Below the pieces are notes generated by a model. It searched no databases. It saw only the letters and a program-made list of their open reading frames with translations, and was not told where the DNA came from. Source: Candidatus Bathyarchaeia archaeon (GTDB lineage Archaea; Thermoproteota; Bathyarchaeia; 40CM-2-53-6). From it: DNA of 64,000 bases. Where the stretch lies: assembly GCA_049513715.1 (NCBI GenBank), contig JBEKVV010000001.1, positions 384,001 to 448,000 of the forward strand. Direction: 5' to 3'. Positions within the stretch are counted from its first letter, which is position 1. Each line of letters begins with the position of its first letter. A program made the position numbers and the translations under genes. This document shows positions 1-26,943 of this stretch, piece by piece.

Positions 1-715
1 CTGTGTTGAAACTTGATTCCAAGTAAACAACGGCTACATTGTACCTCTCGTGGTCTAGGGGTAAGCCTTTGATTGTGCTGATTGGCAGCGTGATTTCGGA
101 GGCGAAGATTTCCCTTAGAACCGCCGTTGGAATCAATGAGTAGAAGGGCTGATCGTTGTTCTTTCTGCCTGCGAAGTCGAAACGGTAGTATTCAGCCGTG
201 GGATTTCTGGCTAAGTAGTCCTTGACCTGCTTCCATGTTTCCGCCTTGTTGAACTCCAAGAACTCCGAGCATCCCCAGGCGCTGTGAAGCATCAACTCGA
301 AAACTAAATTGTACGGTTTTCCAGCCGCGTTAGCGACCGCTTGCGCTTCCTCCCAACTCAGAAACCCCTTCCTATGCGCGGCTCTCTCCTCTCTACTCTT
401 CTGATGGCTTAGGCGATCTTGGGGAGGATAGAATCCGTTCGCTCGTAGGAAATTCCTAAACGCTAACAGCGCCTTATGTCGACCGGCTGCCGTCATGCCG
501 TTCGTGTTCTTGGCGTCGGTCCAAACTTGGTTAATGTCCGCTTTCGCTTTCAGAAGAACTTGTTCCGGTGTGAGATCCATGCCTTTCAGCAATCGACGCA
601 AATACGCGCGATAGTATTTCGCGCCATGTTCGCCGAGTTCTCCCGCTTGCAGTTTGTTCTGAATCCAGGTCTCAATCAGGTCGCTCAATTTGTTCTCCGT
701 ATTCCAAATAGGCAT
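1..715 (-). CDS. Tyrosine recombinase/integrase-like protein, truncated by window edge (not in ORF track)
   Basis: Hand translation from ATG at 715: MPIWNTENKLSDLIETW...YYRAYLRRLL...LSWEEAQAVANAAGKPYNLVFELMLHSAWGCSEF...FAGRKNNDQPFYSLIP..., open to position 1; aligns motif by motif with the 25576-26646 recombinase. Confidence 0.75.
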   Translation of the reverse strand, partial: MPIWNTENKLSDLIETWIQNKLQAGELGEHGAKYYRAYLRRLLKGMDLTPEQVLLKAKADINQVWTDAKNTNGMTAAGRHKALLAFRNFLRANGFYPPQDRLSHQKSREERAAHRKGFLSWEEAQAVANAAGKPYNLVFELMLHSAWGCSEFLEFNKAETWKQVKDYLARNPTAEYYRFDFAGRKNNDQPFYSLIPTAVLREIFASEITLPISTIKGLPLDHERYNVAVVYLESSFNT

Positions 716-768
716 GTAGTTACATATGAACGTGCTGTTTTCCTAGGAGAATACTTTCTTGTCTCAAA

Positions 769-20262: not shown

Positions 20263-20291
20263 CTAGGCCGACCCCCCAGGGGGGGCCCTAG
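20263..20291. terminator. GC-rich hairpin between convergent rps5 and kbl
   Basis: CTAGGCCGACCCCCCAGGGGGGGCCCTAG imperfect inverted repeat. Confidence 0.4.
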
Positions 20292-21490
20292 ATTGCTTTG
20301 AGGGACTTTCCAACTTTCTCAAACGCTTTCAAGGCGAAGTCCAGGTCCTTCTTTGTGTGACCAGCGTTCATTATGGTTCTGATTCTGGCCTTATCACGTG
20401 CGACCATTGGGAAAACTATGGGCAGCGCAAAAACATTCTCGCCGAAGAGCATCTCACTCATCTTCCGCGCCGTCGAGCTCTCACCCACAATTACAGGTGT
20501 TATTGGTGTCTCACTGTTCCCGATGTTAAAGCCCAAGCCCCTGAGTCCCTCTTTGAAGTATCGAGTGTTTTCCCAAAGCTTTTGAAGATGAATTGGCTCA
20601 TCTTGAATGACGTCGAGGCTTGCCTTGCAAGATGCAACAACACTGGCAGGGTGAGATCCGCTCAGAAGCCAAGTTCTCGATTTGTTGAGTGCAAAATTCA
20701 CCAGGTCTCGGCTCCCCGCGATGTACCCGCCCACAACTCCAAACGCCTTCGAAAATGTCCCCATCTCAACATCAACTCTGCCATCGATGTGGTGGTGTGA
20801 TGTTATTCCTCGGCCCGCCTCGCCCAGTACGCCATCTCCGTGGGCATCGTCAATGTACGTCATAGCTCCGTGCTGCTCGGCAAGTTCAACGATCCTGTCT
20901 GCTGGGGCGATATCTCCGTCCATGCTGAAGACGCCGTCTGTGACGATGAGAATGTGTTTGTAGCTCTTCTGCTCTGCCTCGTCGAGCACGTGCTTGAGGT
21001 CATCAGGGTTACAATGTTTGTAGACCGCGCGCTCTGCCCTGCTGAGGCGGACTCCGTCAATGATGCTGCCGTGGTTGAGTTCGTCACTAATGATTAGGTC
21101 ACCTTCACTAGCGAGTTGCGGGATGAGGCCTGCGTTGGTCGCGAACCCGGTTGAGTAGGCCAATGCAGCTTCAGTACGCTTGTACCTAGCCAAGGCCTCC
21201 TCTAGCTCAACGTGTGCGCTCATTGTTCCCGCTATTGGGCGAACTGAACCTGACCCTGCGCCATACTTCTCAATGGCTTCTAAGGCGGCCTTCTTCACCT
21301 TAGGATGATTCGTAAGGTTCAGGTAATTGTTCGAGCATAGCATCATGACCTTCTTTTCAGAAACCACAGTCCAAGGGCCACTGTTGCTGGCCAGAACACG
21401 GATACGCCAATCAAGGTCCTGGGCTGCCAACCGGTCGTATTCTTCGCGGAGAAATGAACGCGGGTCTCTCTTGGTAGTATGAGCGGTCAA
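20288..21490 (-). CDS. kbl: Glycine C-acetyltransferase (2-amino-3-ketobutyrate CoA ligase), PLP-dependent
   Basis: CSNNYLNL, SDELNHGSIIDG, DGVFSMDG, GTFSKAFG; divergent from tdh; start re-called at TTG 21490. Confidence 0.88.
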   Translation of the reverse strand: MTAHTTKRDPRSFLREEYDRLAAQDLDWRIRVLASNSGPWTVVSEKKVMMLCSNNYLNLTNHPKVKKAALEAIEKYGAGSGSVRPIAGTMSAHVELEEALARYKRTEAALAYSTGFATNAGLIPQLASEGDLIISDELNHGSIIDGVRLSRAERAVYKHCNPDDLKHVLDEAEQKSYKHILIVTDGVFSMDGDIAPADRIVELAEQHGAMTYIDDAHGDGVLGEAGRGITSHHHIDGRVDVEMGTFSKAFGVVGGYIAGSRDLVNFALNKSRTWLLSGSHPASVVASCKASLDVIQDEPIHLQKLWENTRYFKEGLRGLGFNIGNSETPITPVIVGESSTARKMSEMLFGENVFALPIVFPMVARDKARIRTIMNAGHTKKDLDFALKAFEKVGKSLKAI

Positions 21491-21599
21491 TAATCCAGAC
21501 CAAGCGGTGACTCCAAGACGGTGTGCATAATAGTTTTGCTTCTGGGTACCTCTCGCAAAACATAAAGGCGTCACGCTTGATACTCGCGCCGAGCCGATT

Positions 21600-22628
21600 G
21601 TGAAAGCATTTGCAAAGTTGCGCCCCGAACCGGGGCTGCAATTGATCGACGCGGAACGACCCAAAATCAGCGGGCACGATGTTCTCGTAAAAGTGAAGGT
21701 GACTTCTGTCTGCGGGACCGATTATCACATTTACAAATGGGATGAATGGGCACAAGCGCGCATCAAACCTCCTAGAATAATAGGTCACGAGTTTGCGGGA
21801 GAAGTGGTGGAAGTCGCGCCGGCAGTCGGCTCCTGCAAAGTGGGGGACATCGTTGTGGCAGAGAGCCATATCGGATGCGGAACTTGCTACCAATGCCGAA
21901 CCGGAAATTCTCACATTTGTGAGAAAGTCGCCATTCTCGGCGTCGATGTGGATGGTTGTTTCGCGGACTATGTGAAAGTACCCGCCAACAATGTATGGCC
22001 AGTTCCAAAAGAGGTCCCGCTGGAAACCGCCTCAGCTCTTGAGCCGCTCGGCAATGCAGTTCACGCCGCATTCGCAGCGGACATCGCGGGCAACGATGTC
22101 GTAATCTTTGGATGCGGCCCAGTCGGCCTTTCCGCTGTGGCCCTAGCGAGCATCTCAGGAGCGCTTTCGGTGACCGCGGTTGACATCAATGACTATCGCC
22201 TAAACCTAGCAGCGAAAATGGGCGCGTCGAAGACGATAAACTCGAAGAATACTGATCCGGTAGCCGAGATTCACAAAAATACTGAGGGCCGTGGGTCTGG
22301 TGTGGTGTTGGAGATGTCTGGAAACGAGACCGCCATTAGGGAAGCCTTTCGTGCGGTCAGGAATGGTGGGACAGTAATTCTATTCGGGATTCCATCTAGA
22401 GATGTTCAATTGAACATCGCGGACGACTTCATCTTCAAAGAAGCCCATGTCCAAGGCATTGTTGGACGTGAGATGTTCAAGACTTGGTACAGGCTTGAGG
22501 CTATATTGAAATCTGGAAAGTTGAACCTCAAACCTCTCATAACACATCGAATGCCCCTGAACCAACTTGAAGAAGCGATGAAACTAGTCGGTTCAGGAAA
22601 TTGCGGCAAAGTCGTGCTAACACCGTAG
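21600..22628 (+). CDS. tdh: L-threonine 3-dehydrogenase
   Basis: CGTDYHIYKWDEWAQARI, GHE, EPLGNAVH, GREMFKTWY. Confidence 0.93.
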   Translation: MKAFAKLRPEPGLQLIDAERPKISGHDVLVKVKVTSVCGTDYHIYKWDEWAQARIKPPRIIGHEFAGEVVEVAPAVGSCKVGDIVVAESHIGCGTCYQCRTGNSHICEKVAILGVDVDGCFADYVKVPANNVWPVPKEVPLETASALEPLGNAVHAAFAADIAGNDVVIFGCGPVGLSAVALASISGALSVTAVDINDYRLNLAAKMGASKTINSKNTDPVAEIHKNTEGRGSGVVLEMSGNETAIREAFRAVRNGGTVILFGIPSRDVQLNIADDFIFKEAHVQGIVGREMFKTWYRLEAILKSGKLNLKPLITHRMPLNQLEEAMKLVGSGNCGKVVLTP

Positions 22629-22642
22629 ACCGCGGATGCTGG

Positions 22643-22655
22643 AAACGTTTATTTT
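22643..22655 (+). repeat. attL-like direct repeat AAACGTTTATTTT
   Basis: Identical to 26866-26878; extends to 15/16 matches (AAACGTTTATTTT[A/G]AG). Confidence 0.75.
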
Positions 22656-22659
22656 AAGT

Positions 22660-22671
22660 TTACTTGTGTGC
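22660..22671. repeat. Left subterminal inverted repeat TTACTTGTGTGC
   Basis: Reverse complement matches 26849-26860 (GCACACCAGTAA) at 11/12. Confidence 0.65.
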
Positions 22672-22945
22672 CCTAAACCGTTCCAATCAGCTCATTTTGA
22701 GCCGACCCAAGGCGATTTTCGACAGACATCACAGGCGCATTACATGCGGAAACTGGCTGACCAACAAACGGGCTCCAGACAAGTCTAACGCCGCGGTACT
22801 CCATCGTATATTTGCACAACAGCCGGCTACCCGCCGGCAACCTAGAAATCAACCCTTTTCCAGACGTGCACGCCTCTAGCGCCATAAATTCACACCAAAT
22901 GCTTAACAGCAACGCCTTTCCCATCTCGCCTACAAGTCAGATCCC

Positions 22946-23761
22946 TTGGCCACGACCGACCAGACCTCCCGCATCCTTGCCATAATCCAACGGGAAATCG
23001 CATGCCATTACCCCGAATTGTTCAATCGAGCCTATCACGAATTGGGCATCCCCTCACGTGTCGTGAAATTTGCATCCTACGCGCTACAGGCCGAGGGAAG
23101 AGTCGAATCACGGACATTGCGGGCGAACGATGCCAAGCAAACAAGGGTCTCCTTCATCTATAGCCCGGACCATCCCAAAGACACAATTGATCAAATCATC
23201 GAGGAGAAAACACTACTTCTTGAACAACATTACAACCTCTCCGACATCATCGGCCAACATGGCGAACAACTAGTTGCCACGGCATGCTCGAACCTCGGAT
23301 ACACAGAAATCGAGATCCGCAAGGAAAAACACGGAAATGAAGACCTCGGCATAGCTAAACATGACATAGATGTTTTCTGCAAACATCCGAGTGGGAAGTA
23401 TTACCAATACATCGAAGTCAAGAACAGGCGCTATCCATTAGGCGAACCAGACGTAAACTCAGTACTGCAGACTACCCGTAGGGCAACTGCCCGGTGGAAG
23501 CTAGATTTACGACCGGCTGTCGTTACGAGGTTCACAACCGAAACAGCCGGCCAACTCGCCCAGCGGTTTGACTTGCCAATCGCACTATCACCAGGGGAGT
23601 TTGTACCTACCAGCCACAGGGTATTATATGAGACACTCAACTCTCGCCTCGATCTAGACATCGCCATCGCCGACACCCCGCCAACCCTTCTTACTCCTAG
23701 AATCCGGCAATACACTACAGACTACAAATACAGACAATCCGAGCAAAGTCCCACTAGCTGA
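22946..23761 (+). CDS. PD-(D/E)XK restriction-endonuclease-like protein
   Basis: GQHGEQLV ... HDIDVF ... YIEVKN catalytic motif. Confidence 0.75.
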   Translation: MATTDQTSRILAIIQREIACHYPELFNRAYHELGIPSRVVKFASYALQAEGRVESRTLRANDAKQTRVSFIYSPDHPKDTIDQIIEEKTLLLEQHYNLSDIIGQHGEQLVATACSNLGYTEIEIRKEKHGNEDLGIAKHDIDVFCKHPSGKYYQYIEVKNRRYPLGEPDVNSVLQTTRRATARWKLDLRPAVVTRFTTETAGQLAQRFDLPIALSPGEFVPTSHRVLYETLNSRLDLDIAIADTPPTLLTPRIRQYTTDYKYRQSEQSPTS

Positions 23762-23922
23762 CATGCTTGATACAACTTTTAGTCACAATCAGACGCCAGC
23801 ATCAGCCGCCGACCCCGTACTCTTCTCTTTCTCATCGGTTCTCCACGACACGAAGTTGCCCGTAACTAAGGAAGTCTCTGGAGACACACATCGAATAGTC
23901 GAGACCATGTCTCCCGTGTTCT

Positions 23923-24339
23923 CTAAGTCACTGTGAGCACAATTGAATTTGCTTGGAGCTTTGTGGTATCTTGAGTGTATTGTGGGCTCTCCCCCGAACA
24001 GAAGAATCCTCGACAAGACCAACCATCCAGTCTAATGTTTAACCATGGAGCGTCGCTGTAGCCTTGAATAAGCAGGTCGAGCTTGTAACTCGTCCCTGGT
24101 ACCGCGGCATCAGGAATCTTCACATGAAATGTGTATGGCTGTGGCAGAACAGGTGCAATTTCGTTGAATCTCAATACATTGTCAGTGACCAAGTTGACGG
24201 GATTGGAGAGCACCTCAAGTTTCAGATCATAGATCATAACTTTTGCGGTGAAGGTGATGTCGAGATTGATGGTCTGTCCCGGCTTCACGTGGACATATGA
24301 GATTCTGTATTCAACCTTCCAGTAGTTAGAGCTCAACAC
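23923..24339 (-). CDS. Hypothetical Ig-like beta-sandwich protein (possibly a fragment)
   Basis: VKPGQTINLDITF...FHVKIPDAAVPGTSYKLDLLI pattern; no signal peptide. Confidence 0.5.
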   Translation of the reverse strand: MLSSNYWKVEYRISYVHVKPGQTINLDITFTAKVMIYDLKLEVLSNPVNLVTDNVLRFNEIAPVLPQPYTFHVKIPDAAVPGTSYKLDLLIQGYSDAPWLNIRLDGWSCRGFFCSGESPQYTQDTTKLQANSIVLTVT

Positions 24340-24436
24340 GTATGATTGGCCTTCGTCAGCTGTTGCCGAACCGCTTCTTCGAGGCCCAGGAGCTTTTCGC
24401 GTGTGTCACGTTTCCGGGGTGCCTCACCGAACATGG

Positions 24437-24607
24437 TCATGGCAGGTCGCCGAGCTGGAAGTGGAATCGCAGGTCACAATGCTCGCACATGAGGACTAAC
24501 CAATACGGCTGGTCTGGTGAAGTCCAACCGGCTTTACGAGAGGTGGCCTTGAAGCCCGGCTGTGGTATGCCCGTCTCCAGCTTGACCCCGCTAGTTTCCT
24601 TTTCCAT
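24437..24607 (-). CDS. Small hypothetical protein with a CxxC motif (56 aa)
   Basis: Hand translation MEKETSGVKLETGIPQPGFKATSRKAGWTSPDQPYWLVLMCEHCDLRFHFQLGDLP. Confidence 0.35.
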   Translation of the reverse strand: MEKETSGVKLETGIPQPGFKATSRKAGWTSPDQPYWLVLMCEHCDLRFHFQLGDLP

Positions 24608-24779
24608 TTTTCTTTCTCACTTTTTCACTGCCGGAACATCGTGGGCCGCCTTCGTACCGGCTGCGAAGGCAACCGTCGTGACTCGTTAGAGTCCTATGAC
24701 CTGGAAGATTCTGGGTTCTCCGACCATTGTAAGACGAGCTGAGCCCAACGCGGTAAACGAGACACAACGTCTTGACTAC

Positions 24780-24896
24780 TCAACCGTTGACAAGTCTCCG
24801 GAGAATGGTTTCGAACGTGTCATCTTTCGATCCGAGTTTTGCTAGGTCGTCTCGGAGATGCTTTGACACTTGAATCGTCGTGGTGGTCTTCGACAT
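24780..24896 (-). CDS. Ribbon-helix-helix-like microprotein (38 aa, below ORF-track cutoff)
   Basis: MSKTTTTIQVSKHLRDDLAKLGSKDDTFETILRRLVNG: beta-strand TTIQV plus two helices. Confidence 0.7.
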   Translation of the reverse strand: MSKTTTTIQVSKHLRDDLAKLGSKDDTFETILRRLVNG

Positions 24897-24963
24897 GATT
24901 GATGTGGGCGTCGTAACCCCTATATTAGCCAGAGGCCTTTCAATATGACTAGGTCAGATACTT

Positions 24964-25533
24964 ATGGGGAGACGAGGGAAAGACTTTGAGCGAAACATTG
25001 ACTCCGTGATATGGGGGATTATTCGATCTCACATAACAGGAATCACCTTCGAGGACTCACTGAAGGAAGCCGAACACAAGATTGGAATCAGCAGGGACAC
25101 GTTCTCGCGACACCTCAATGGCCTCCGTGCCATAGGAGCAGTCAATCAGCAAGGGAACCTCTACTCTGTGTCAAAGGTGTGGGCGCTACAGGACGACTCA
25201 AGGCAACTACGCCAGCGGAATCTCTACCCCTACTTACTCGTCGCCGTTACATCGCTGACCCACCGTTATCTGGCATTGCTGCAAGCGATGATTGAGGCAC
25301 CTGACATCTCCAAGGCTCATGGTGAGGCTGATCGCTTTCTCAGGAATGTCGACGACTCCTACATTATGGAGTTTGCCCGTGGCGTCTGGAAATCTAGGGG
25401 TAACGTGCGACTGGAACCGCTGAGTGAAGATAACAGAAGTTTGACGCTAGAGTTTGTGAAAGCTCAACGTCCCAACAGAGGCGTGCGTGTTAGGGGCATC
25501 TCCGACCGACAAGCCAAGCGTAAGTCACCATAA
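24964..25533 (+). CDS. Winged-HTH domain protein
   Basis: GISRDTFSRHLNGLRAIGAV...NLYSV wHTH at the N-terminus. Confidence 0.65.
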   Translation: MGRRGKDFERNIDSVIWGIIRSHITGITFEDSLKEAEHKIGISRDTFSRHLNGLRAIGAVNQQGNLYSVSKVWALQDDSRQLRQRNLYPYLLVAVTSLTHRYLALLQAMIEAPDISKAHGEADRFLRNVDDSYIMEFARGVWKSRGNVRLEPLSEDNRSLTLEFVKAQRPNRGVRVRGISDRQAKRKSP

Positions 25534-25575
25534 CGCCTAGGCAAACAATATTGACTTGATGTGGGGTACACCCTG

Positions 25576-26646
25576 CTAGGTCTTCTGGAGCTGCTTCATC
25601 TTCCGCTTGATTACAGCGAGAACCTCCGGATCCTCAAACAGCCTGTCCATGTAGCTGTCCGGTTTCTTCCGGGCCTCTTCCTTCTCCTCAAGGCGGGTTA
25701 GTTTATCTCGGAGTTCCTCGACCTCTTCCTTTGTGGGGATTGTTGGCTTCCACAGTTTCCCAAGTTCCCTGGCCATGTATCGCTCGTCCAGGGTTTCTCT
25801 GCTGTAACCGTACCGGTCGGTGCCGTGGCCCATGCAGAACTCGCTGACCGCATAGGCCACTTCGGATTTGCCGCATTGACTTTTGAAGCTGGACCTCAGT
25901 TGATGTGGCCCTAGGCCGACCTGCCACAGTTTCACTTTCTTCGCTGCTCTCCTCCAAACATTCTGTAAGTCGTGGGCATCGATCAGTGTGCCTCCCCGGT
26001 CCTTGGAGAGCTTGGTCTTCATCGGAAACTCGGGCACGTGCTGCTTAGGTACCAAGGTGAAGAAGTCGTTCAACGTCGACTTCCTAGGCGAGAGAGCGAT
26101 TTTGATGTACGGTTTCTCGTTGTTTCGCTGCGTCTCGATCTTGCGTTGGATCTCAAGGGAGTTCTGGATCTCCGAGACCTCGTCCTCACCGAGACCGGAC
26201 CAGAGCATGAATTTGAAGAGGCTTCGGTAGGGTTCGTCGGTTTCCTGGATTATGGTGCTCGCGTTCTCCCAGGTTAGTTCAGGTTTGCTTCGGACACGTC
26301 GAACTCTGATCTTCCCGTTCACGTGCATGTCGACTTCATGAAACTCCAGGAAGCTGCGCAGCGCGTATTTCGTCAAGTGGGCGGCGTTCATGGAATGCTT
26401 GTAGATCTCTCCGAGTCTTCCTTTGACTTCTATCGCGGTTTCCCGGGGGTTCTGTTGGGCTCTCTTTAGGAAGCTGGCGGGATCCTCGTTCCCGAAGAAT
26501 CGCGTGAGGAAGATGACGTATTGGTTGCGGGTGCTTTCCTTGAGTTCTGTTCCTACGCCGTTCAGCCATGATTTGACCTCTGGGGTTGCAGAGAGCTTCG
26601 CGAGAGCCTCAGTCAACTTGCTGCGCCTCGCTTTGGATTTCGTCAA
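25576..26646 (-). CDS. Tyrosine recombinase/integrase (atypical box I)
   Basis: N-terminal core-binding region (ESTRNQY...LRSFLEF), SGLGEDEV, PRKS, GPHQLRSSF, MGH...RYGY, coiled-coil tail. Confidence 0.85.
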   Translation of the reverse strand: MTKSKARRSKLTEALAKLSATPEVKSWLNGVGTELKESTRNQYVIFLTRFFGNEDPASFLKRAQQNPRETAIEVKGRLGEIYKHSMNAAHLTKYALRSFLEFHEVDMHVNGKIRVRRVRSKPELTWENASTIIQETDEPYRSLFKFMLWSGLGEDEVSEIQNSLEIQRKIETQRNNEKPYIKIALSPRKSTLNDFFTLVPKQHVPEFPMKTKLSKDRGGTLIDAHDLQNVWRRAAKKVKLWQVGLGPHQLRSSFKSQCGKSEVAYAVSEFCMGHGTDRYGYSRETLDERYMARELGKLWKPTIPTKEEVEELRDKLTRLEEKEEARKKPDSYMDRLFEDPEVLAVIKRKMKQLQKT

Positions 26647-26836
26647 GTCGCGCTAGGCCGTCCTTGAATTTGCTTCCGTGGTTCTTGTGGCCGCATCTGC
26701 AGGTACAGCGAAACTTTTTAGCTGCGGCGCAGTTCCCGCTGCCGCAGTGGCAAGCAATGGGTAGAAGGTTGAGGTTAGGTTCAAGGTTCTCGACGGCGAA
26801 CAGTTCTCGCCAATCACGTTCGGTTACTCTCTCCAA
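26609..26836 (-). CDS. Cys/His-rich putative zinc-binding microprotein
   Basis: CHCGSGNCAAAKKFRCTCRCGHKNHG; overlaps the recombinase start by 38 bp. Confidence 0.65.
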   Translation of the reverse strand: MERVTERDWRELFAVENLEPNLNLLPIACHCGSGNCAAAKKFRCTCRCGHKNHGSKFKDGLARLDEIQSEAQQVD

Positions 26837-26848
26837 GTCATATTACCA

Positions 26849-26860
26849 GCACACCAGTAA
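26849..26860. repeat. Right subterminal inverted repeat GCACACCAGTAA
   Basis: Partner of 22660-22671. Confidence 0.65.
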
Positions 26861-26865
26861 TACAA

Positions 26866-26878
26866 AAACGTTTATTTT
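26866..26878 (+). repeat. attR-like direct repeat, also the probable BRE/TATA of rpl15
   Basis: AAACGTTTATTTT, 65 bp upstream of the rpl15 ATG. Confidence 0.75.
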
Positions 26879-26943
26879 GAGCACTTCTGAACCTCACCCG
26901 TTCGCGTGCTTGATCAGGGCAAACGATTGAGGGCTTAATCCAA

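Follow-up and report, generated by a model that had tools for sequence, protein, structure and literature searches.

An archaeal integrase family without the box-I catalytic arginine, and a conserved hairpin arginine as its candidate stand-in

The first catalytic arginine, Arg I, is regarded as near-invariant in tyrosine recombinases and type IB topoisomerases. Departures from this rule have been described: the subgroup accounts in PMC8138268 report a shifted first Arg for IntDes and, for the IntCTnDOT subgroup, a first Arg missing in CTnDOT, ERL and Tn5520, where another Arg further along substitutes functionally (citing Kim et al. 2010). GinC of the GInt islands, as characterised in PMC5385486, is also without the first Arg. 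Among archaeal integrases, the overview of types in PMC5861418 gives the SSV type the signature R...KxxR...Y and an attachment (att) site within an int gene that integration splits, and places the SNJ2-type Int in an operon with small accessory open reading frames (ORFs) and a 14-bp direct-repeat core; Arg I appears there in the signatures of the SSV, pNOB8 and SNJ2 types and in the table rows for pNOB8 and pTN3. Thaumarchaeal cryptic integrated elements, according to PMC6563490 (Krupovic et al. 2019), have intergenic targets in 15/68 cases and commonly encode Zn-ribbon proteins, and the att repeats of such elements go down to 8 bp in the account of PMC8371274. Here we describe two integrases encoded in a stretch of 64,000 nucleotides (nt) from a Candidatus Bathyarchaeia archaeon (contig JBEKVV010000001.1, positions 384,001 to 448,000; hereafter the window): the product of the gene at 25576..26646 on the minus strand (the integrase), which lies in a 4.2-kb insertion upstream of rpl15 (element 1), and a homolog at the window edge (the paralog), which belongs to a second insertion (element 2). 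Both lack Arg I, and an Arg beside the presumed catalytic Lys is the best candidate for its replacement.

The integrase translation carries the motifs FMLWSGLGEDEVSEI, ALSPRKSTLNDFFTLVP, GPHQLRS and CMGHGTDRYGYSRE; gene callers offer an alternative start at residue 11 (TTG at 26616), which would give a product of 346 amino acids (aa). A 116-sequence family alignment was used as input for an AlphaFold2 (AF2) model, for a family profile and for scoring conservation at ≥90%. The model (predicted local distance difference test, pLDDT, 93.6; predicted template modelling score, pTM, 0.81) has two domains, a core-binding and a catalytic one. Foldseek comparison with the PDB gave 27 matches at E≤1e-3, recombinases throughout among the matches listed, and the viral matches were integrases or Tyr-recombinase-domain proteins throughout among the named matches listed. 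In VIA-align the catalytic domain was closest to SSV1 Int (Z 15.5, root-mean-square deviation 2.5 Å, 153/160 residues), and the whole protein to XerA (Z 15.4), followed by IntI, lambda Int, Tn1549 Int, XerH and Cre (Z 12-15). The 116-sequence profile matched the XerA structures 4a8e and 5hxy with E 2.7e-11 and 7e-11, respectively. Of the features of the superfamily, the fold, a Tyr in the C-terminal region, the HxxR of box II and His III were all found, and Arg I was not. By its predicted structure the integrase is a tyrosine recombinase of the two-domain fold.

Annotation models see little of this. The Pfam model PF00589 (Phage_integrase) gave no match to either window integrase, even at E≤1, and the NCBIfam XerA model NF040815 scored 27.3 bits for the integrase and 17.8 bits for the paralog against a 220-bit cut-off. 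PF00589 matched 48/116 family members at E≤0.01 (best 8.9e-9) and PHROG 1 'integrase' was matched by 71/116, so that the family can be placed as a divergent branch of the tyrosine recombinase superfamily. Its database entries are mostly unnamed or called 'hypothetical protein'. A separate observation concerns the C terminus: the relative P0058 is about 31% identical to the integrase overall, and its C-terminal tail (KEEARKKPD...FEDPEVL.VIKRK.KQLQKT; window 25576..25690) is identical in 29/35 positions; these shared 35 aa look like a swapped C-terminal helical module.

To describe the active site across the family, homologues were collected in two database searches (58 close clusters plus 168 representatives at E≤1e-3), and residues were counted per column in the 171 aligned sequences of at least 230 aa, leaving out the 33 shorter ones of 204. 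Gly153 of the integrase pairs with Arg I in three independent alignments (HMMER to XerA 4a8e, HMMER to 5hxy, and hhalign to the genome's own XerA-like protein), the Arg-I counterparts being G-L/V-R-V-x-E-L in XerA and TGLRRGEL in the genome's own protein. In the AF2 model, residues 151-153 form the turn preceding helix 154-162, and the turn before that helix is where Arg I sits in canonical enzymes. Column 153 holds Gly in 142, Asp in 24, Ala in 2, Ser in 2 and a gap in 1 of the 171 sequences; Arg occurs in none. The Glu at +3 (156) is kept in 140/171. The remaining catalytic positions are each kept in about 95%: K189 in 162/171, H248 in 164, R251 in 162, H274 in 162 and Y281 in 163, the last being invariant in the 116-sequence alignment. 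H248, R251 and H274 pair with the HQLRH/HVLRH and GH of XerA, and we infer that Y281 is the nucleophile.

These counts bear directly on a sequence-only reading of the window, which had claimed that box I reads SGLGEDEV in the integrase and SAWGCSEF in the 2..715 homolog in place of the canonical Arg box, that the integrase retains HQLR, MGH and a candidate Tyr in RYGY, and that both proteins have an RK dipeptide followed by F[FY][TS]L[VI]P. All of these are present in the translations (the last as SPRKST/FFTLVP and AGRKNN/FYSLIP). The substitution is indeed common to two very divergent proteins, the integrase and the paralog being 24-28% identical, and the Gly and RK noted in that reading both recur across the family, R188 being kept in 164/171 (a register shift, KGRK, accounts for 5 of the 7 exceptions). 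The window genome has six paralogs, all with Gly at box I, and encodes in addition a canonical Xer-like gene (181 bits) and a second canonical integrase. A profile search across the phylum (301 sampled genomes, 123 genera) found the family in 75 genomes and 41 genera; within the genus its occurrence is patchy, with members in 9/22 other genomes, 0-6 copies each and some with stop codons. By alignment, the absence of a box-I Arg is confirmed as family-wide and far beyond chance.

Could the true Arg I be present and merely displaced, by several residues or one helix turn, so that its absence is an alignment artefact? According to PMC8138268 the Arg I of the IntDes subgroup is shifted, and Arg does occur at 154 (+1) in 11, at 155 in 5 and at 156 (+3) in 14 of the 171 sequences, for example in GLGRRE and GLDAERF. 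The window integrase itself reads SGLGEDEVSEI and has no Arg or Lys across 147-167, however, and 136/171 sequences are without any R or K in 150-158; the three alignments moreover agree that Gly stands at the place of Arg I. We therefore regard displacement as highly improbable, the least credible of the explanations considered. As an observation of its own, a subclade has Asp at box I (24/171) and Arg replaces the Glu at +3 in 14/171, as in GLDAERF. This combination looks like a charge swap and may be a second active-site variant.

We then asked which residue could supply the missing charge. Only two arginines are conserved at ≥90% in the 116-sequence alignment, R188 and R251 (Arg II). The AF2 model places K189 on the loop that joins the predicted strands 180-185 and 195-200, and we infer from this model that it would be the general-acid Lys, with R188 directly before it. 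For comparison with enzymes that have kept Arg I, 60 homologues from genomes across the phylum, canonical ones included, were added to the 116-sequence set (176 rows, 172 of them scorable). The box-I Arg is absent and a hairpin Arg, one or two residues before the Lys (RK, RVK, RPK, REK and others), is present in 138 of the 172; the reverse state, with a box-I Arg and no hairpin Arg (TK, AK, SK), was found in 29. Three sequences have both and two have neither, one of the latter being a misalignment. The two arginines are thus complementary in 167/172 relatives, as compensation by the hairpin Arg would predict. From the aligned sequences, replacement of Arg I by R188 is the best-supported reading.

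The mechanism that we propose is as follows. In a large, mainly archaeal branch of tyrosine recombinases Arg I is permanently gone, with Gly, Asp, Ser or Ala at its position, and the nucleophile Tyr, the Lys, both His II and His III, and Arg II remain. The missing guanidinium would most likely come from the Arg that precedes the catalytic Lys by one or two residues in the loop of the beta2-beta3 hairpin (R188 in the integrase), which would reach the active site from another part of the backbone, as proposed for IntDOT. The element would recombine through a core of 13-16 bp, AAACGTTTATTTT, that presumably belongs to the promoter region of rpl15-secY.

Several results weigh against this proposal. 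On a FastTree tree built with both columns removed the box-I state changes three times, with one independent contrast on supported branches and three in all; the complementarity therefore reflects one to three old events and is beyond statistical testing. Three canonical sequences carry both Arg I and RK, so RK alone is no proof of compensation. The hhalign and HMMER alignments of the hairpin to Xer proteins pair wrong strands, and the assignment of K189 as the catalytic Lys accordingly rests on the predicted hairpin together with conservation. Some members have Arg near box I, at +1 or +3, as counted above, and several homologous copies are frameshifted or have stops, as is expected for mobile elements. 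The suggestion of the sequence-only reading that the Arg next to the Lys perhaps fills the role fits the data: R188 is the only family-conserved Arg besides Arg II and is complementary to Arg I, with only one well-supported independent contrast on the tree.

A rival explanation is an active integrase in which R188 is not the stand-in and would serve in DNA binding only, the charge being provided by R141 of the PYR motif, by an Arg in trans from a partner subunit or accessory protein, or by Arg II alone. R141 is present in 104/171 sequences, without exception in the close subfamily; in 24/53 loci of a metagenome scan (see below) the integrase gene is coupled to a small, conserved Cys/His ORF; and the three canonical enzymes with RK fit such a role as well. 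Yet R141 is replaced by N, Q, K, S, E or A in 59/171, including the window's own paralog (PYN), so that it is unable to serve the whole family, and in the AF2 model a helix of 10 residues separates it from the box-I turn, R141 being at the distant, N-terminal end. The small Cys/His ORF is lacking in several rpl15-targeting lineages and in element 2. Uncompensated loss of Arg I cripples canonical enzymes, which further speaks against a site without a replacement. We consider this alternative rather unlikely.

The integrase lies at one end of element 1 (Table 1). In same-genus relatives window 22657..26866 has no counterpart at the site, and the alcohol-dehydrogenase gene abuts rpl15-secY there; the two direct repeats fall precisely on the borders of this region, and the empty sites of two relatives have a single core copy, AAACGTTTATCTTG, continuous with both flanks. 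The TATA-like run of the core lies 63-80 nt upstream of the rpl15 start, which would place the core in the promoter of the operon. Apart from the integrase, none of the ORFs of element 1, the 75-aa Cys/His ORF included, has a Pfam, PHROG, NCBIfam or PDB family match, and the integrase is therefore the only recognisable recombinase of the element.

To see whether the target is shared, we scanned metagenomes for relatives of the integrase and obtained 53 loci. At 22 of them, representing about 13 different elements, an integrase 58-100% identical to that of the window adjoins, and is divergent from, an rpl15 gene 60-100% identical, followed by secY; at the other loci of the 58-100% class the sequence ends too near the integrase to judge rpl15. 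One of the 22 (L041) has an L15 fragment identical to that of the window and an integrase 78% identical, and none of the window's cargo genes. At six loci where the integrase is less than 50% identical and 600 nt or more of sequence upstream are available, rpl15 is missing from that place. An att-like motif was found in 31/53 loci. Conversely, of 67 species-representative loci that extend 1300 nt or more upstream of rpl15, nearly all titled Bathyarchaeia or Bathyarchaeota, none has an integrase there, and a pattern scan with the close-subfamily alignment found no relatives in genome contigs or viral contigs. Together, comparison of these loci shows a lineage-specific targeting of rpl15. On the other side of the operon, distant homologues of the integrase (28-39%) occur about 1.4 kb downstream of secY in four other Bathyarchaeia loci (L159:5840-6794, L186:5883-6428, L187:5838-6872 and L067:2216-3112), which may point to another hot spot of integration next to this operon.

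Selection was examined in nine pairs of integrase genes, of which five were usable; four were dropped as mis-registered by a stop inside the tblastn range. As synonymous divergence (dS) was saturated, the values serve only for comparing nonsynonymous (pN) with synonymous (pS) proportions: pN was 0.14-0.28 and pS 0.60-0.85. At the codon level these pairs show the integrase to be under purifying selection.

Loss of Arg I could also mean that the protein uses the recombinase fold for DNA binding and is dead as a catalyst, for example as a repressor or partition-type factor resembling the regulators of the SPbeta group, and that the elements were inserted by other means. The recombinase-fold regulators SroF, MrpR and YopR are among the structural matches (Z 8.3-9.3), the Pfam model misses the window integrase, and the contigs of four runs hold the integrated form only, with neither an excised form nor an empty-site form and no joints, although contigs cannot reveal rare forms. 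Inactive regulators of the MrpR/YopR/SroF type have, however, lost their catalytic residues. In the present family five of the six catalytic positions are about 95% kept, and the Tyr, both His, Arg II and the Lys are each retained in 162-164/171 although the family diverges to about 20% identity. Catalytic recombinases match the model much better (Z 12-15.5) than the regulators do, no other recombinase is recognisable in the 4.2-kb element with its clean direct repeats, and the target follows the integrase sequence, with rpl15 at ≥58% identity and other places at the six loci below 50%. We judge a dead protein very improbable. The earlier view of a rewired subfamily in place of decay is upheld by the retained residues, by pN being far below pS, and by both window copies being terminal integrases of repeat-flanked elements.

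Site occupancy is polymorphic, and repeats as well as empty sites in relatives were found for both elements. Taken at the level of sequence, the picture is that of a mobile and site-specific integrase family in working order, which is probably catalytic, and the enzyme of the window is presumably active today. As a whole, the explanation that the protein is the active integrase of a 4.2-kb cryptic element, that Arg I was lost and that R188 stands in for it appears to us moderately probable, somewhat more so than its denial.

Table 1. Coordinates of integrase genes, repeats and other features in the window
Feature	Position in window	Strand	Remarks
Paralog (integrase of element 2), N-terminal 238 codons	2..715	-	full gene G000:C1:383624-384715; box I SAWGCSEF, hairpin GRK
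Element 2, right direct repeat TTCCTAGGAGAA, 12 nt	740..751		about 60 nt upstream of metK start; left copy L090:8478-8489
Element 1, 4.2 kb, 16-nt direct repeats included	22643..26881
Element 1, left direct repeat AAACGTTTATTTTAAG	22643..22658		15/16 identical to right copy; 15 nt past end of alcohol-dehydrogenase ORF
Element 1, body	22659..26865		absent at same site in related genomes
Cargo ORF, 271 aa	22946..23761	+	no family match
Cargo ORF, 138 aa	23923..24339	-	no family match
Cargo ORF, 189 aa	24964..25533	+	weak helix-turn-helix matches only, E ~0.1
Integrase gene	25576..26646	-	356 aa; predicted tyrosine-recombinase fold; G153 at Arg-I position, R188-K189 in hairpin loop, H248xxR251, H274, Y281
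Cys/His-rich ORF, 75 aa (CHCGSGxC...CxCxCxHxNHG)	26609..26836	-	directly upstream of integrase gene, 8-38 nt overlap
Imperfect palindrome ATTACCAG-CACA-CCAGTAAT	26842..26861		4 nt inside right repeat
Element 1, right direct repeat (att core) AAACGTTTATTTTGAG	26866..26881		63 nt upstream of rpl15 start codon; includes TATA-like run

The 75-aa Cys/His ORF has homologues, 32-89% identical, in the 24 metagenome loci mentioned, and is missing from the rpl15-targeting lineages L042-44, L049/50, L057, L058, L064/65 and L067 as well as from element 2. Prediction of a complex between it and the integrase gave a score of 0.00, which allows no call either way. The ORF may encode an accessory or directionality factor, as in SNJ2. 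The palindrome next to the right repeat is perfect or compensated in related elements (for example ATTACCAGTGTGCTGGTAAT in L045 and TTCCCGTGTGAGGGAA in L062). This suggests that it is conserved as a hairpin or for protein binding; by its sequence it is a candidate integrase-binding or regulatory site. A scan of element 1 for sigma-70 promoters and terminators gave nothing above shuffled sequences, with models not suited to archaea. A tRNA gene as target was ruled out, there being no tRNA gene in the window.

Two further observations concern the surroundings of element 1. Integration duplicates the TATA-like core, and the second copy of the presumed rpl15 promoter element, at 22643..22658, points into the left end of element 1, towards the ORF at 22946..23761 on the plus strand. 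Between rps5 and rpl15 the run of ribosomal-protein genes is naturally interrupted in this genus (window 20288..22628) by an aminotransferase gene on the minus strand and a zinc alcohol-dehydrogenase gene on the plus strand; both are kept at the same place in relatives and thus lie outside the mobile element.

The window edge cuts off the paralog, whose part inside contains HSAWGCSEF and FAGRKNNDQPFYSLIP; the full protein has 363-372 aa, with HDLR, GH and a KGY tyrosine. It is the terminal gene of element 2, which measures about 10.3 kb (G000:C1:374490-384739 = L090:8490-18739) and lies mostly to the left of the window. This element is absent from at least seven relatives, and four empty sites each have one related core copy with 1-2 mismatches. 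Its cargo includes an Orc1/Cdc6-like AAA+ gene (L090:10452-11600) and a 616-aa ORF without a family match.

On a wider view, an old and diverse archaeal clade may have moved Arg I to the Lys hairpin (R-K/R-x-K), convergently with IntDOT, with one lineage specialised on a 13-bp core in the presumed rpl15-secY promoter of Bathyarchaeia and rebuilding this promoter on integration; we hold this broader scenario to be evenly balanced between right and wrong. The family would be the second independent natural case, after IntDOT, of a phosphoryl-transfer site rebuilt from a different backbone position. The lack of Arg I would also explain why these genes escape Pfam-based annotation, and since PF00589 gives no match and the entries are mostly unnamed, integrated elements in Bathyarchaeia and related archaea are probably under-counted. 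If Arg I has indeed been relocated throughout the clade, the RKHRHY rule is no rule for archaea, and Pfam screens miss many integrated elements. The short and precise attachment cores before housekeeping operons (rpl15-secY, metK) could be used for site-specific integration in archaea without genetic tools, and, if the broader scenario holds, the enzymes with such cores would supply an uncultured archaeal class with integration tools ready for use.

How does the integrase compare with the systems already described? A full-text literature search and passages retrieved from an archaeal recombinase review and a thaumarchaeal survey, with supplements outside their scope, gave no description of an Arg-less archaeal integrase family. 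The passages of the survey (PMC6563490) found by term are silent on a missing Arg I and on targeting of rpl15, and its text, supplementary tables aside, has 0 occurrences of 'ribosomal protein' and of 'catalytic'. The thaumarchaeal cryptic elements resemble element 1 in being small and integrase-bearing and in having short att repeats; they differ in their host, which here is a member of Bathyarchaeia. Archaeal XerA (4a8e, 5hxy; NF040815) is the best profile match and shares the core-binding and catalytic fold (Z 15.4), HxxR, GH and the Tyr. It has Arg I (GLRVSEL), however, and is a single-copy housekeeping dimer resolvase, whereas the window family is multi-copy, patchy and carried on mobile elements.

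SSV-type Int is likewise an integrase of archaeal mobile elements, and the SSV1 catalytic domain (3vcf/3uxu/4dks) is the best structural match to that of the window integrase. In contrast to this type, the window integrase is without Arg I and has His at position II, and its gene is unbroken, with 20-30 nt between it and the att core. The SNJ2 type of haloarchaeal pleolipoviruses offers a parallel in gene arrangement, an operon with accessory ORFs and a short core, to be set beside the coupled 75-aa ORF and the 12-16-nt cores found here; SNJ2 Int, though, keeps R...K...HxxR...Y without Glu I and His III, targets a tRNA gene and comes from a different phylum.

The nearest likeness at the active site is to IntDOT: at the level of mechanism, and compared by description, both lack the first Arg of the RKHRH pentad and would have another Arg of the catalytic domain in its place. 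In IntDOT the box-I residue is Ser, and the substitute, from the work of Kim in 2010, is reportedly Arg-285, which stands two residues before the hairpin Lys and reaches the active site from an unusual place on the backbone. The R-K and R-x-K motifs of the window family would amount to the same solution. IntDOT is a heterobivalent bacterial enzyme whose N-domain is arm-binding, whereas the N-terminus of the window integrase is a helical core-binding domain only. Moreover, the IntCTnDOT subgroup keeps Arg I in NBU1, NBU2 and Tn4555, whereas the family of the window integrase has it in 0/171. By this comparison, the likeness to IntDOT looks like convergence, not membership.

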